Positions 36,330-41,641 of a stretch of DNA of 64,000 bases are shown one piece after another; the first letter of the stretch is position 1, and each line of letters opens with the position of its first letter. This stretch comes from an uncultured Chloroflexia bacterium (GTDB lineage Bacteria; Chloroflexota; Limnocylindria; Limnocylindrales; CSP1-4). The stretch covers positions 512,001 to 576,000 of the forward strand of contig CAWFXA010000003.1 of the NCBI GenBank assembly GCA_963819655.1. The letters are read 5' to 3'. A program made the position numbers and the translations under genes. Below the pieces are notes generated by a model, which was not told the DNA's origin, ran no database searches, and was given only the letters and a program-made list of their open reading frames with translations.

Positions 36330-36979
36330 CCGTCGGCCACCTCGGTCTCGTCGACCACATCGCTGATCCCGTGGACCCGCTCGACGACCTCGATGATGGT
36401 GTCCGTGTCCTCGATGCCGTCGACGACTCCACGGATGACGGCGGTCGAGCCGCGAACGCCGATCAGCAGCCGGTCGACCAGCCCCGCGGTCGCGGCATCC
36501 GCCCGCAGAGCCTCGCGGATCCGCGCCGTCAGCTCGGGCTCGCCCGGCAGATCCGACCCACGGTGGTCCTCGTCGTACGGCTCGGACTCGGCCGAGACGG
36601 CGGCGCCGGCCGCGATGATCAGGCCGTCCTCCTCTTCCGGGTCGGCATGGACCGGTGGGTCGATCGGCGGGACGTAGACGAGGCCCTCCTCGGTCGCGAC
36701 GTCGGGGTCGTCGGTCTCGCCCTCACGAAGATCGTCGAGATCGAGGTCATCGAGCACGGCGGCCTCGTCGGCCACGAACGTCGGATCCGGCGGCGAGTCG
36801 CCGCGCTCGAACTCGGTCAGGGTCGGCGTGCGCTCGTGTTCCATCTCGTCGGGCGTGATGACCGCGTCCTGCTCATCGGGCGGCGTGTCGCCCTGGATCT
36901 CGATGACGTCCTCGAGCGGCAGATCGTCCGATGTATCGGCGCCATCGGCGGGCGTGCGTCGCTCGCGTGATTCGGTCAC
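36326..36979 (-). CDS. BON-domain protein with acidic N-terminus
   Basis: C-terminal IREALRAD...IRGVV...GISDVVD BON pattern; GAGGAGG RBS. Confidence 0.8.
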
Positions 36980-37068
36980 TGGGCACCTCCTCGGCTCGAA
37001 GCGTCCGGCCGCGCCCTTGCAGGGACGTCTACCGCCCGTCTCGAACGCTCACGGTATCCTGCAGACAC

Positions 37069-38445
37069 ATGCCCCGCACCCTCATCGATCTCGAACCGCC
37101 GAGCGAGAAGGTCTTCCTCGTCGCCGTCGACACCGGCGCCCAGGACGGCTGGACGGCGCAGGAATTGCTGACCGAGCTCGCGAACCTCGCGACGACGGCC
37201 GGTGCCGACGTCGTTGGCGCCGAATGGCAGAACCGTCGTCATGTCGACCCGAACTGGTACATCGGGAAGGGCAAGGCGGAGGAGCTGGCGTCGGCCAAGC
37301 GCGAGACCGGCTTCGACATCCTGATCGCCGACGACGAGCTGTCGCCGGCGCAGCAGCGTGCCCTCGAGGAGCTGCTGCGCGTCAAGGTCATCGACCGCAG
37401 CCGCCTCATCCTCGACATCTTCGCCCTGCATGCCCAGACCCACGAGGGACGCCTCCAGGTCGAGCTGGCTCAGCTCGAATACCAGCTCCCGCGCCTGACC
37501 AAGCTGTGGACCCACCTGTCGCGGACCCAGGGCGGCATCGGGTCGCGCGGTCCCGGCGAGAGCCAGCTCGAGACCGACCGGCGGATCGTCCGGACGCGGA
37601 TCGCCAAGATGAAGGAGCGCGTCGAGCAGGTCCGCCAGCAGCGCGCGACCGCCGCGCGCGGGCGTGACCGACGGCTGTGGCCGACCGTCGGCATCGTGGG
37701 GTACACGAACGCCGGCAAGTCGACCCTGCTCAATACTCTCGTCGGCTCCGAGGTAGCGCGCGCGGAGGACAAGCTGTTCGCGACGCTCGATCCGACGAGC
37801 CGCCAGGTCAAGCTCGGCGACGGCCAGACGGCGATCGTCACCGACACCGTCGGTTTCATCCACAAGTTGCCCCACCAGCTGGTCGATGCCTTCCGGGCGA
37901 CCCTCGAGGAGGTCAATCGCGCTGACGTGCTGCTCGAGGTCATCGACGCGGCCGACCCGCACGCGGAGGAGCACCGGGCGACGGTCCAGTCCGTTCTCGA
38001 CGAGCTCGGGGCTGGCGACAAGCCGCGCCTCGTGGTGTTCAACAAGGCCGACCTGATCGACCGCGTGGCGACGGATGGAGCGGCGGTCGCCCCGTCGATC
38101 GCTGGTGCCGTGTACGTGTCGGCCCTGACCGGGTTCGGCATGGACACGCTGCGCGCCGAGATCGCGGCGGTCCTCGCCTCGCTGTGGGTCGACGTCGACG
38201 TGGCGCTGCCGTACGCCGCTGGCGAGCTTCTGGCGCGTGTACGGGAGCGCGGGACGATCGACATCGAGTATCGAGAGCACGACGTGCGCGTGCACGGGCG
38301 CGTGGCCCCGTCACTGGCCGGTGAGCTCGATTCTGCGGCTGCCCGCTGGTCCGACGCGTTTGACGGGGATGACGGCTCCGGCGGCAACGGCGCCGACCCG
38401 TCGCTGCCGAGACGATCCGCGGCGGGGCGCCGCACCGCGGGCTGA
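37069..38445 (+). CDS. hflX: GTPase HflX
   Basis: [37 protein letters not shown]. Confidence 0.97.
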
Positions 38446-38455
38446 CGGGGCGGGG

Positions 38456-39022
38456 ATGGCCCCGACCCGACGCGCCGGGCGCGCGACGACGATCGGTGGG
38501 GAGATCCTGACGTGGACCGAAGCCGTGGGGACTCGTGGGACGCGTTGGCGCGAGGCCCTGCAGCGAGACGGGACGCTCATCCGGTCGTTGCTGCTGGAGG
38601 TCTCGGCAGCCGGGCGGCCGACCCGACTCGAGATGACGACCGCGGCCGGGCTGCTCACGCTGCACCCGGAGCCGGACGAGTCGGCGCTGCACGGGAACGT
38701 CGTGAGGGGCGACGGGGTGGACCATCTTGCCTTCGCGTGGAGCGCGGACCATGAGCTGCTGGTCCTCGGATCACCTGCCTCGGCGACGATCGCGCTCCGG
38801 CGGCTCGCAGAACGGATCGTGGTGGGTGCGACATGGCCGCTCGATGTAGTGCGGATCGATGACGCGCTCGAGCCGCGCCCGGCGAGCTGGACGGCGGAGC
38901 GAGTCGCGCGGCATGCGTGGCACCTGCGCACCGTCGACGGCCTCGAGGAGCGCCGCCTCACCGTCGATGATCAAGGCCGGCCAGTGCTGACGGATGCGCT
39001 GACCTGGCCGCTCGAGGCGTGA
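38456..39022 (+). CDS. Hypothetical protein
   Basis: 188-aa ORF directly after hflX with plausible codon usage. Confidence 0.6.
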   Translation: MAPTRRAGRATTIGGEILTWTEAVGTRGTRWREALQRDGTLIRSLLLEVSAAGRPTRLEMTTAAGLLTLHPEPDESALHGNVVRGDGVDHLAFAWSADHELLVLGSPASATIALRRLAERIVVGATWPLDVVRIDDALEPRPASWTAERVARHAWHLRTVDGLEERRLTVDDQGRPVLTDALTWPLEA

Positions 39023-39023
39023 C

Positions 39024-39120
39024 TGTGGGAACCGTGTGGACAACGCTCTCGTTCACGGGATGTTTGCGATGAAAGTCGTGGATAACCGCCTTGTCGCGGT
39101 GATGGCGCGCACCGTATGGT
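39024..39120 (+). promoter_or_regulatory. Unit 1: three DnaA-box-like sites plus sigma70 promoter
   Basis: TGTGGGAAC 39024, TGTGGACAA 39035, CGTGGATAA 39077; TTGTCG-18bp-TATGGT. Confidence 0.65.
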
Positions 39121-39126
39121 TGGTCT

Positions 39127-39220
39127 TGCCCGGAGGGGCCACGGACATCTAGCGATTTGATCGGTGTTTACATTGATCGGAGCGTCTAGTGATCGAGGTT
39201 CCTTCGGGCGTTTTCGTGTG
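39127..39220 (+). ncRNA. Candidate rod-shaped sRNA, copy 1
   Basis: 13-bp closing stem GCCCGGAGGGGCC/GGTTCCTTCGGGC, 11-bp apical stem, TTTTCGT tail. Confidence 0.7.
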
Positions 39221-39256
39221 TCCGGCGTCTGACCGATCCCGCCGCCGCAGACCCGC

Positions 39257-39353
39257 CGTGGATTACCCGTGGATAGTCCAGCTCGACAGAGCCCCGAATC
39301 ACGAAACTCGTGGATAACACCACTTCACAGACCTGAGTCCCACCGGCTACGGT
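39257..39353 (+). promoter_or_regulatory. Unit 2: three DnaA-box-like sites plus sigma70 promoter
   Basis: CGTGGATTA 39257, CGTGGATAG 39268, CGTGGATAA 39309; TTCACA-18bp-TACGGT. Confidence 0.65.
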
Positions 39354-39358
39354 AGTCG

Positions 39359-39453
39359 TGCCCGAAGGGGCCGTGGACTGAAAGCGGCGATACCGGTGTT
39401 CTGCATCGGTGTCGATGGCTACGGACCGGCGGTTCCTTCGGGCGTTTCGTTGT
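39359..39453 (+). ncRNA. Candidate rod-shaped sRNA, copy 2
   Basis: Closing stem GCCCGAAGGGGCC/GGTTCCTTCGGGC, 11-bp apical stem, TTTCGTT tail. Confidence 0.7.
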
Positions 39454-39505
39454 CCGCGGCAGCCCGTGCGGCCAGAGCACGGGATCGCCAGTACCATTCC
39501 TGACC

Positions 39506-41641
39506 GTGGCATCGCCCCCGCCCTCGGACGCCCGCTCATCGTTCCGACCCGACATCGAAGGCCTGCGCGCCGTCGCCGTCCTGCTGGTCCTCGCGTATCA
39601 CGCGCGCGTGCCCGGCCTGACCGGCGGCTACATCGGCGTCGACGTCTTCTACGTCGTGTCGGGCTTCCTCATCACCGGGCTGATCGTCCGCGAGCTCCAG
39701 GCGACCGGCCGGCTCGACCTGCCGGCCTTCTATGCGCGACGCGCGCGCCGCTTGCTGCCCGCGGCCCTCGTCGTGATCGCCGTGACGGTCCTTGCGTCGG
39801 CAGTCATCCTGCCGCCGCTGCGCATGGTCGACGTCGCCGGCGATGGCGCGGCCGCCGCCCTGTACGTGAGCAACATCCGGTTCGCGGCGCAGGCGACCGA
39901 CTACCTCCAGGCCGAGCTCGACCCGTCGCCGCTGCTGCATTTCTGGTCGCTCGGGGTCGAGGAGCAGTTCTACCTGTTCTGGCCGGCCCTCCTGTTCGCG
40001 GTCGCCGGCCGCCGGACGAGCGTGCGGCGGATCGGGATCGCGATCGCCGTCGTGGCCGCAGTGTCGCTGGTGCTGTCGATCGTGTGGACGTCGACCGACG
40101 CGCCCTTGGCGTTCTTCCTCCTGCCGGCCCGTGCCTGGGAGCTGGCTGTCGGGGCCGGGTTGGCGCTCGCCGCGACCCGGATCGCGCGGATCCCGGCGTT
40201 GGCCGCCACGGCGGCGGTCGTGGTCGGCCTGGCCCTCATCGGCATCGGCGCGGTGATCTTCGACCTTGCGACACCGTTCCCGGGGACCGCGGCCCTGGTC
40301 CCGGTGGCCGGCGCCGCCCTGGTGATCGCAGGCGGTCTGCGCCAGCCGCTCGGGCCGATCTCGCGGCTCGTGGCGATCCCACCGATGCGCTGGATCGGCG
40401 GCATCTCCTATTCGCTGTACCTGTGGCACTGGCCGTTGCTCGTGCTTCCGGCGGCGGCCGTTGGGGCGCCGTTGCCCGGCCCGGTCCGGCTCGCGCTCGT
40501 CGGGCTCACGTTCGTCCTCGCCGAAGCCAGCCGCCGCTGGGTCGAGGACCCGATCCGGCACGGGCAGATCTCGAAACTCAGGCCGTCGCGCTCGCTCGCC
40601 GCGGCCGGTGCGATCAGCCTGGTGGTCGCGGGCGTCTCGCTCGGGGCGGGTCGCCTCGCTGCTCCGCCGCAGCTCGCCGCCGCCACCGGCGGGCCCGTCG
40701 AGCTCGACCTGCCGACGCCGCTCCCTGGCCCGACTGACGCCCCGCGGGTCACGCCATCCGCGGGTGCGACACAGACCCCGAGTGCGACACCGACGCCTGT
40801 GATCGATCCCACCCGTGCCCCGACCGCTGGCGGCCCCGTCCCGGGCGACCTCGTGCCGTCGCTGGCCGCCGTGCGTGACGACATCCCGGTCATCTATGCC
40901 GACGCCTGTCACGCCGAGTCGCGCGAGACGCAGCCGCCGGCCTGCGTGTACGGCGAGGCCGGTTCGTCGACGTCCGTGTACCTCATCGGCGACTCGCACG
41001 CCGCGCACTGGTTCCCCACGTTCGAGCGGCTGGCGAGCGAACGTGGCTGGCGGCTCGTCTCGCTCACGAAATCCGCCTGCCCGGTGGCCGACCTGCGCGT
41101 CTACAACGCGAGCCTCAAGCGCGAGTATGTCGAATGCACCGATTGGCGCGCGGCTGTCCTGCAGCGCATCGCCGACGAACGCCCTGCGCTCGTGGTGATC
41201 TCGGACAGTCGGGCGGGCAAGCTGTGGAATGATGGCACGCCGGTCGACACGACCGACCGGGAGGACCTGTGGGCGGCCGGTCTCGGCCGCGCGATCCGCG
41301 CGATCGACGAGGTCGCCGATCATGTGCTCGTCCTCGGCGACACGCCGAATCCCCTCGGCGATCCGCCGGTGTGCCTGTCGGACCACCTCGATGACGCCCT
41401 CGCCTGCGCGACCCCGACCTCGAAGGCCCTTGCGCCGCGACGGACTGCCACGGAGCGCGAGGTCAGCGCCGCGAGCGGCGCGACGTTCGTCGATCCGAGC
41501 CCGTGGCTGTGCCCGACCGAGCCGTGCCCGGCGATCATCGGGCGCGTGCTGGTGTACCGCGACGGCCACCACATGACGACGCCGTTCGCGTCGGCTCTCG
41601 CCCCATACCTCGAGCCGTTGCTGCCGGCCCTGCCGGGCTGA
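39506..41641 (+). CDS. Acyltransferase-3 + SGNH O-acyltransferase (OafA/YrhL-like)
   Basis: RPDIEGLRAVAV, HFWSLGVEEQFY, GDSHA, DGHH. Confidence 0.95.
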   Translation: MASPPPSDARSSFRPDIEGLRAVAVLLVLAYHARVPGLTGGYIGVDVFYVVSGFLITGLIVRELQATGRLDLPAFYARRARRLLPAALVVIAVTVLASAVILPPLRMVDVAGDGAAAALYVSNIRFAAQATDYLQAELDPSPLLHFWSLGVEEQFYLFWPALLFAVAGRRTSVRRIGIAIAVVAAVSLVLSIVWTSTDAPLAFFLLPARAWELAVGAGLALAATRIARIPALAATAAVVVGLALIGIGAVIFDLATPFPGTAALVPVAGAALVIAGGLRQPLGPISRLVAIPPMRWIGGISYSLYLWHWPLLVLPAAAVGAPLPGPVRLALVGLTFVLAEASRRWVEDPIRHGQISKLRPSRSLAAAGAISLVVAGVSLGAGRLAAPPQLAAATGGPVELDLPTPLPGPTDAPRVTPSAGATQTPSATPTPVIDPTRAPTAGGPVPGDLVPSLAAVRDDIPVIYADACHAESRETQPPACVYGEAGSSTSVYLIGDSHAAHWFPTFERLASERGWRLVSLTKSACPVADLRVYNASLKREYVECTDWRAAVLQRIADERPALVVISDSRAGKLWNDGTPVDTTDREDLWAAGLGRAIRAIDEVADHVLVLGDTPNPLGDPPVCLSDHLDDALACATPTSKALAPRRTATEREVSAASGATFVDPSPWLCPTEPCPAIIGRVLVYRDGHHMTTPFASALAPYLEPLLPALPG

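Follow-up and report, generated by a model that had tools for sequence, protein, structure and literature searches.

The DnaA box, the site of domain IV of the replication initiator DnaA, has the consensus TTATCCACA or, in its high-GC form, TTGTCCACA, and an invariant CCACA combined with a free third position is the known pattern of variability among such boxes. A few protein genes are known to be under the transcriptional control of DnaA as well, and box clusters outside oriC occur at dnaA and nrdAB of E. coli as well as at sda and in the DnaA-box clusters of B. subtilis. Among small RNAs, the multi-copy paralogues Qrr1-5 of Vibrio use a conserved single-stranded seed together with Hfq, and the Y RNAs, about 100 nt in length, hold their 5' and 3' ends in a conserved helix around a variable interior and are linked to replication initiation in eukaryotes. 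To our knowledge, the small RNA CcnA is not driven by a DnaA-box array. CcnA is reported to be a cell-cycle non-coding RNA of Caulobacter crescentus that acts on the CtrA and GcrA mRNAs (PMC8959179). A study on P. aeruginosa gidAB-parAB describes DnaA as a transcription factor at non-oriC boxes (PMC13438810), and in a 2021 review on the transcriptional role of DnaA the terms 'small RNA', 'sRNA' and 'non-coding' are absent (PMC8203912). Full-text searches, with subscription journals outside their scope, found neither DnaA-box-driven small RNAs nor non-coding RNAs of Limnocylindria.

The locus considered here lies in a window of 64 kb (the whole stretch of DNA that was analysed) from a genome assembly of 3.49 Mb with 69% G+C and 91% completeness. 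It is a gene-free gap between a gene for a 188-residue protein, which stops at 39022, and an acyltransferase gene that starts at 39506, and is overlapped on both strands by mechanically called ORFs among which there is no sign of real genes. Two units follow each other in this gap with a period of 232-234 nt, and every box, hexamer, spacer, helix arm and tail that the first-pass annotation had described was found again in its place (Table 1). The same annotation held that the spacer sequences have diverged with the spacings kept, and this was borne out by pairwise alignment, in which the boxes, the -10 hexamers and the helix arms hold the clusters of identity. The distal boxes start 53 and 42 bp before the start of the proximal box, and the -10 hexamer is separated from the 5' helix arm by 7 nt in unit 1 and by 6 nt in unit 2. 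The word YGTGGATWA occurs three times in the window, each time within the gap, against an expectation of 0.20, and none of 100 shuffles reached three. To judge from sequence, both units probably specify stand-alone, self-terminating small RNAs, the promoters of which would be controlled, and probably activated, by DnaA.

Table 1. Features of the two units, their upstream neighbours and related loci elsewhere in the genome.
Feature	Position	Strand	Description
hflX	36931-38445		precedes the gene for the 188-residue protein
Gene for 188-residue protein	38456..39022	+	upstream syntenic marker of the RNA pair; no functional partnership claimed
Unit 1 distal double box	39024-39032 and 39035-39043	+	TGTGGGAAC and TGTGGACAA, co-oriented, 2-bp gap
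Unit 1 proximal box	39077-39085	+	CGTGGATAA, 5 bp upstream of -35
Unit 1 putative promoter	39091..39120	+	-35 TTGTCG (39091-39096), 18-bp spacer, -10 TATGGT (39115-39120)
Unit 1 closing helix	39128-39140 and 39197-39209	+	GCCCGGAGGGGCC pairs with GGTTCCTTCGGGC, then tail GTTTTCGTGTGTC
RNA A	39127..39218	+	putative ends, about 90 nt
Unit 2 distal double box	39257-39265 and 39268-39276	+	CGTGGATTA and CGTGGATAG, 2-bp gap
Unit 2 proximal box	39309-39317	+	CGTGGATAA, 6 bp upstream of -35
Unit 2 putative promoter	39324..39353	+	-35 TTCACA (39324-39329), 18-bp spacer, -10 TACGGT (39348-39353)
Unit 2 closing helix	39360-39372 and 39431-39443	+	GCCCGAAGGGGCC pairs with GGTTCCTTCGGGC, then tail GTTTCGTTGTCCG
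RNA B	39359..39452	+	putative ends, about 92 nt
dnaA	G000:C2:468761-470149		dnaA-dnaN spacer with boxes and AT-rich element
Member C	G000:C2:1026628-1026861		same promoter design, closing helix and tail; four DnaA-type boxes
Member D	G000:C2:1280668
Member E	G000:C2:63749

Of the 36 other genomes of the genus, 35 contain the pattern GTGGATRA-N41-43-GCCCGRAGGGG, as do 3 of the 24 from a sister family whose genomes measure 1.1 Mb; a reversed control pattern was absent from all 61 genomes. Promoter and interior divide these matches into orthologous classes. A covariance model (R1) was constructed from 15 class B RNAs without upstream sequence, so that the boxes play no part in it; it scores RNA A with 73.7 bits and RNA B with 89 bits. 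Searched against 150 genomes of the class, R1 matched in 37 of the 44 genomes of family f1, representing 12 of its 13 genera, and in 3 of the 50 genomes of family f4, all three in genus g16; families f2 (0/6), f3 (0/49) and f5 (0/1) gave no match. Upstream sequence was examined for 41 matches, i.e. all those in fetched loci with the genome's own excluded (13 from the same genus and 28 others). A box with at most one mismatch lies at -50 to -52 from the helix start in 33 of them, as compared to 0.0007 per sequence in shuffles, and the double core GTG[GC][AG]-N6-7-GTGGA, a pattern written after the data were seen, lies at -101 to -104 in 31 (shuffles 0.0002); the genomes being kin, such counts are not independent events. 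Because the double-core pattern and the heptamer described below are post hoc and the genomes are related, the shuffle controls overstate significance. The boxes, spacings and stems originally described from this single gap are conserved in relatives.

The eight matches without a proximal box comprise the three RNAs of genus g16, two further copies that stand behind other promoters, and three sites that are degenerate. The function of the RNA therefore does not depend on the boxes. In the g16 homologues the RNA is present and the boxes are absent, so that the RNA is older than, or separable from, DnaA control. Two R1 matches, 232-1022 nt apart on one strand, occur in 13 of the 41 genomes with a match, and the tandem state is therefore old. 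A scan of one genome per prokaryotic species yielded at least 122 stretches; 72 of the 80 loci listed are labelled as Chloroflexi/Chloroflexota, Limnocylindrales/-ia or Anaerolinea-type, and of the other eight, labelled outside Chloroflexota, six are chance matches in coding-like sequence and two are complete family members, the bins of which are probably mislabelled.

Both transcripts are predicted to form a long rod on the + strand, with folding energies of -47.8 kcal/mol for RNA A and -58.2 kcal/mol for RNA B (z = -5.9 and -6.5; none of 200 shuffles did as well). Folds of the - strand reach only -29.9 (unit 1) and -36.9 kcal/mol (unit 2), because the G-U pairs become C-A. RNA A is composed of the closing helix, an inner rod in which CAUCUAGYGAUC appears twice, an apical GGUG-UUUA-CAUU, and a U-rich tail; RNA B consists of the closing helix, an inner helix, an apical GGUG-loop-CAUC, and likewise a U-rich tail. 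The repetition of CAUCUAGYGAUC on both arms in class A produces a pseudo-two-fold duplex with symmetric bulges. Compensatory changes affect 6 of 32 predicted pairs among 8 orthologues of class A and 10 of 30 predicted pairs among 15 orthologues of class B. In the latter, 97.8% of the cells pair, compared to 33-47% when the partners are slid by 1-3 columns, and the covariation score was reached by none of 500 shuffles. The inner helix of class B accounts for compensatory change in 9 of 15 pairs. Its closing helix shows almost no variation (10 of 12 pairs invariant), with two G-U pairs present in all 15 sequences, and is therefore conserved as sequence beyond the needs of pairing.

A further element is the heptamer UYRCAUY, which was defined post hoc on RNAs that are kin. 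The matches listed from the public-genome scan include 43 RNAs of 70-89 nt, and 32 of these carry the heptamer at the apex (relative position 0.50-0.54); it occurs in 0.9% of shuffled interiors. Furthermore, GTGCTTGCA occurs in apical hairpins of the RNAs of relatives. The covariation demonstrates the shape predicted for the RNA, and the ends given in Table 1 are the presumptive ones. The family had not been recognised at first sight, and the covariance-model search places the RNA outside the known Rfam families: Rfam 15 returned no match at the gathering score in the window, only noise with E values of 2.9 and 9.8 in the region, and no match for members C, D and E or for the sister-family RNAs. 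A search for 6S RNA (RF00013) found nothing in the genome.

With regard to promoters, a sigma-70 scan flagged neither unit, since unit 1 reached 8/12 against a threshold of 9 and the -10 hexamer of unit 2 only 3/6. The layout TTGnnn-N18-TAnnnT, of the type seen in unit 1, is conserved in relatives; the class B orthologues carry weak -35 hexamers of the CTTCCC type at the same place, and class D follows the consensus TTGACC-N18-TACCGT in 18 species. The 13-bp closing helix is followed by GUUUUCGU in unit 1 and by GUUUCGUU in unit 2, with short U tails of 3-4 U, and a scan for the terminator consensus reported just a sub-hairpin of unit 1. In four metatranscriptomes, represented by assembled contigs, short pieces on the conserved arms were detected (e.g. 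39179-39211 and 39432-39458), for which DNA carry-over is possible; one contig joins 39139 to 39432, and a search of metatranscriptome runs gave small shares only. The contigs leave the RNAs of this organism uncovered; the pieces most likely originate from family members of relatives and speak neither for nor against transcription at this locus.

In the genome as a whole, five cassettes are built on one plan, namely A and B plus the members C, D and E. Each has a double box with a 2-bp gap, a third box some 51 nt ahead of the helix, a promoter of sigma-A-like type, and an RNA in which GCCCGRAGGGGCC/GGUUCCUUCGGGC form the closing helix, followed by a short U tail. The proximal box lies exactly 51 nt before GCCCGRAGGGGCC in A-D; member E has GGTGGATGA in this position. 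The members have both helix arms and the tail GYUUYCGUKG in common, and the tail is conserved in relatives too; their interiors vary in sequence and also in length (73-185 nt in the genome), with member C holding a multi-branched interior of about 185 nt in contrast to the rod of 82-84 nt. The neighbours of the paralogues are unrelated: MoaA and a nucleoside phosphorylase at C, a BamB-like gene at D, Rieske and MFS genes at E. The two cassettes had initially been taken for one duplicated pair; their paralogy holds, and their scope has to be widened to a five-member, family-wide RNA gene family. On comparative grounds, units A and B are members of an uncatalogued RNA family of soil Chloroflexota.

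The 13-nt arms are inverted repeats on either side of an interior that varies from 73 to about 255 nt, an arrangement that would also suit a dispersed repeat of the MITE or REP type with terminal inverted repeats, or a DNA cruciform. Such an origin is most improbable, given that only five diverged copies exist, at orthologous positions across genera and with conserved flanking genes, that the invariant G-U pairs are C-A mismatches on the other strand, and that compensatory changes accumulate in the interior and a conserved promoter stands at each copy. Five copies per genome at orthologous places thus speak against the dispersed REP/MITE element that had been considered from the outset as a competing identity of these cassettes.

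A different question is whether the hairpins act in cis, as leaders or attenuators of the downstream gene or as terminators of the hflX operon. Unit 1 follows the stop codon of the upstream gene directly, 50 nt separate the end of unit 2 from the co-oriented acyltransferase gene (of the AT3-SGNH type), and the weak U tails could permit read-through. Synteny over 44 RNA loci, many of which are short, tells otherwise: a relative of the acyltransferase gene is kept downstream in just 5 of 44. A relative of the gene for the 188-residue protein, which has no Pfam match and resembles PF06475 according to language-model features, is present in 23 of these 44 loci, and hflX in 16. A conserved promoter of its own stands before each of the tandem units, and the contexts of paralogues C, D and E are unrelated, so that a cis-acting role is very unlikely and the reading as stand-alone RNAs is preferred.

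The identity of the boxes was judged with a 9-mer criterion of 0-2 mismatches to the consensus. The reverse complement of TGTGGACAA is a perfect TTGTCCACA; CGTGGATAA has one mismatch, and TGTGGGAAC, CGTGGATTA and CGTGGATAG have 2-3. The spacers between dnaA and dnaN in 29 genomes of the genus contain 3.48 boxes per kb, as opposed to 0.076 per kb genome-wide, in the words TTGTCCACG, TTATCCACA and ATGTCCACA, and these boxes adjoin a nearly invariant AT-rich element of the unwinding type. The regions upstream of the RNAs reach 13.6 boxes per kb with the same words, and at the level of words the boxes are identical to those of the genus's own oriC. A class D alignment of 18 species retains four boxes, TTnTCCACA, a second CCACA 11 nt further on, and two in opposite sense, in which CCACA/GTGGA never varies and the third position is unconstrained. 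In a ChIP-seq study, DnaA of E. coli prefers co-oriented box pairs 2-3 bp apart, and the paired boxes of both units, with their 2-bp gap, match these E. coli sites (PMC11317965). Domain IV of the DnaA protein aligns to the DNA complexes 1J1V (E = 1.4e-15) and 3PVP, with RDHSTVLHA in place of the RDHTTVLHA of E. coli, and DnaA is the only protein with a Bac_DnaA_C domain found in the 91%-complete assembly.

In the genome, 31 double boxes were found, which include all five RNA loci and thereby four of the seven best sites; the distal double box of unit 1 is among these seven, that of unit 2 is another of the 31, and a further one lies upstream of dnaB (Pfam DnaB, DnaB_C). Most of the remaining weak matches fall inside genes according to a rough GC3 test. 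Two perfect boxes stand in the intergenic region between parA and a carboxylase gene. The shared oriC words, the pair geometry, the boxes at dnaB and parA, and the sole DnaA-domain protein sustain the first-pass assignment of these words as DnaA boxes. Two other assignments were discarded. A second origin does not fit, as the origin of the genus, with its unwinding element, is in the dnaA-dnaN spacer and the gap has no AT-rich element; a general promoter element of stable RNAs does not fit either, as the SRP RNA gene (G000:C2:1616866) has no box upstream.

It might be argued that the RNAs are real and that the boxes are bound by another transcription factor recognising a word of the GTGGAYAA type. 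The proximal box, with the reverse complement TTATCCACG, differs from the perfect TTATCCACA by a mismatch at one end and is never the perfect consensus, and its strict register with the -35 would fit any activator of class I or II. On the other hand, the same words fill the oriC of the genus beside the unwinding element and precede dnaB and parA, the variation follows the DnaA-box pattern with invariant CCACA and variable third position, the pairs have the gap reported for DnaA in the study cited above, and no second DnaA-domain protein was found in the assembly at its 91% completeness. A factor other than DnaA is for these reasons rather unlikely.

The loci could also serve chiefly as reservoirs of DnaA boxes that titrate the initiator, in the manner of datA or the DnaA-box clusters of B. 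subtilis, with the RNAs as by-products or as a means to evict DnaA by transcription. They are indeed the densest box clusters of the genome, well above the density in the oriC spacers; the only cluster of at least three near-perfect boxes in the genome is located at member D, and at G000:C3:98637 there is a conserved triple box, likewise one of the 31 double-box sites, that lacks the RNA chassis; its 44-nt core, the best-conserved piece, recurs in 34 of the 40 other genomes of the genus. An RNA-like stretch after this triple box was rejected, as it showed no significant structure (z = -1.0). Storage alone would not account for the strong selection on RNA sequence and fold across genera, nor for the persistence of the RNAs without boxes in genus g16, and the fixed distance of 5-6 bp between proximal box and -35 points to promoter control. 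Titration as the main role is accordingly quite unlikely, and control of the RNA promoters by DnaA remains the preferred reading.

In the mechanism that we envisage, a promoter of the sigma-A type would start transcription a few nt before GCCCGRAGGGGCC, 6-7 nt past the -10 hexamer. The transcript would form one long hairpin with the 13-bp closing helix and its two invariant G-U pairs, and this helix together with the short U tail would double as an intrinsic terminator. With a start just before GCCCGRAGGGGCC and termination at the helix and tail, the product would therefore be an RNA of about 90 nt. DnaA would set the rate of transcription, a dimer occupying the paired boxes with the 2-bp gap at about -100 to -84 and a further DnaA the box at about -50 to -42, abutting the -35 at a distance of 5-6 bp. 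With separations of 53 and 42 bp, i.e. about 5 and 4 helical turns, the three sites would share one face of the helix. If activation holds, RNA output would rise with active DnaA. Activation is indeed the better guess from geometry, as the boxes lie upstream of the -35 and off the core promoter and the -35 of class B is poor; repression is a lesser but real option on the same guess, and a switch dependent on the nucleotide state, or another mode, takes what is left.

As to the action of the RNA, binding of a protein is favoured over antisense pairing because of the shared helix, the symmetric motifs and the apical UYRCAUY hairpin, and because neither known chaperones nor clear targets turned up. 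Hfq (PF17209), ProQ (PF04352) and CsrA (PF02599) gave no match in the genome, at 91% completeness of the assembly. In a weak test, complements of the apical loops and of the class A motif matched only the RNA genes themselves or scattered intragenic near-matches.

In this context the locus may be set against the described systems. It resembles the DnaA-regulated promoters elsewhere in its pairs of consensus-type 9-mers 2-3 bp apart upstream of a promoter, and in the presence of boxes at replication-related genes, here dnaB and parA; it differs in that the targets are small non-coding RNAs, which hold most of the strong box clusters outside the origin. With CcnA it shares a small RNA wired into a replication or cell-cycle circuit, but CcnA is one gene in contrast to the five-member family found here, and there is no likeness in sequence or structure. 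Like Qrr1-5, the members are paralogues with regulator sites at a fixed distance from the promoter, conserved RNA segments and their own terminator, but here the conserved segments are the closing helix and the apical hairpin, and none of the three chaperones was found. The likeness to Y RNAs and Ro RNPs is one of shape only, as a Ro60/TROVE gene (PF05731) gave no match in the 91%-complete assembly and no Rfam match to a Y RNA was obtained here.

In a bolder and decidedly tentative reading, the main transcriptional output of the replication initiator in Limnocylindria would consist, in place of proteins, of a regulon of at least five structured RNAs on one chassis, which would report, or feed back on, replication status. 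The chassis would be the DnaA-box promoter, the 13-bp closing helix with its tandem G-U pairs and the tail, carrying interchangeable interiors of 73 to about 255 nt, and a dimeric protein that takes part in replication or the cell cycle might, for instance, be what the RNAs bind. The searchable literature has no description of DnaA acting outside the origin chiefly on a conserved set of small RNAs. If true, the finding would add an RNA family with an unusual shared chassis and would offer a natural test bed for the effects of box number, pairing and helical phase in the action of DnaA on promoters. The regulon, if real, would be a bacterial counterpart, in logic, to replication-linked small RNAs. 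The genomic evidence suggests that a set of regulatory RNAs is under the control of replication status, and replication initiation would thereby be wired directly to RNA-based regulation in an uncultured lineage that is abundant in soil and freshwater.

Relatives of the window's RNA pair, the predicted small RNAs A and B, were found in other genomes. In the sister family, whose genomes measure 1.1 Mb, the box-promoter and the closing helix, GCCCGAAGGGGCC...GGTCCCTTCGGGT, that enclose a longer RNA (see the table) are those of the window RNAs; the copy of this longer RNA at L052 is placed after a gene whose end resembles the MoaA gene preceding member D of the RNA family, and no Rfam match was obtained. 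In genus g16, which belongs to family f4 of the same class, loci L106, L107 and L108 hold class A-like RNAs in which each arm bears the CAUCUAGUGAUC motif; these RNAs are preceded by ordinary promoter-like sequence instead of a DnaA-type box, of which none was found there. In one relative, the class A/B-type RNA at L012 (G013:C310, minus strand) is 117 nt long, and its interior holds two adjacent GGUGCUUGCAUCG hairpins; the apical module, the hairpin at the RNA tip, is duplicated within this RNA.

Positions of the upstream gene, the box clusters and the sister-family RNA (G000, own genome)
Feature	Position	Loci	Strand or context
188-aa gene	window 38456-39022		+; directly 3' of hflX
Origin spacer, DnaA-type boxes in both orientations, then AT-rich element	G000:C2:468350-468760, outside window	L041, L055-L084	dnaA-dnaN
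Double DnaA-type box (2-bp gap), two weaker boxes	G000:C2:613726-613810, outside window	L239	upstream of dnaB helicase gene
Three co-oriented boxes, 3-bp gaps: TGTGGACAA, CGTGGATGA, CGTGGACAA	G000:C3:98637-98669, outside window	L240, L242-L253	
Two convergent boxes, TTATCCACA and TTATCCACG, 34 nt apart	G000:C3:935527-935569, outside window	L040	divergent intergenic region, ParA/Soj-like and carboxyltransferase genes
~255-nt RNA	L051 669-925; L052 (minus strand); L053	L051, L052, L053	sister family; G053, G048, G038

The 188-aa gene upstream is syntenic with the pair across genera. It has no Pfam match; judged by language-model features, its closest neighbours are clusters with PF06475 (Glycolipid_bind) in 13-46% of their members.

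The dnaA-dnaN spacer contains the chromosomal origin; the AT-rich element 3' of its boxes, ~47 nt and of GTTACTACGGTGATGACGGAGTGAGAAGATAGAGAGAAGATACCCAC type, is almost unchanged across 29 genus genomes. At the triple box, the most conserved piece is the 44-nt box core, which 34 of the 40 other genomes from the genus share, and a promoter-like CTTCCG-N18-TAGGAT lies 5 bp downstream of the boxes; the 120 nt downstream showed no significant structure, and the next ORFs had no Pfam match. The double and weaker boxes upstream of dnaB suggest that this helicase gene is under DnaA control in the organism's own lineage.
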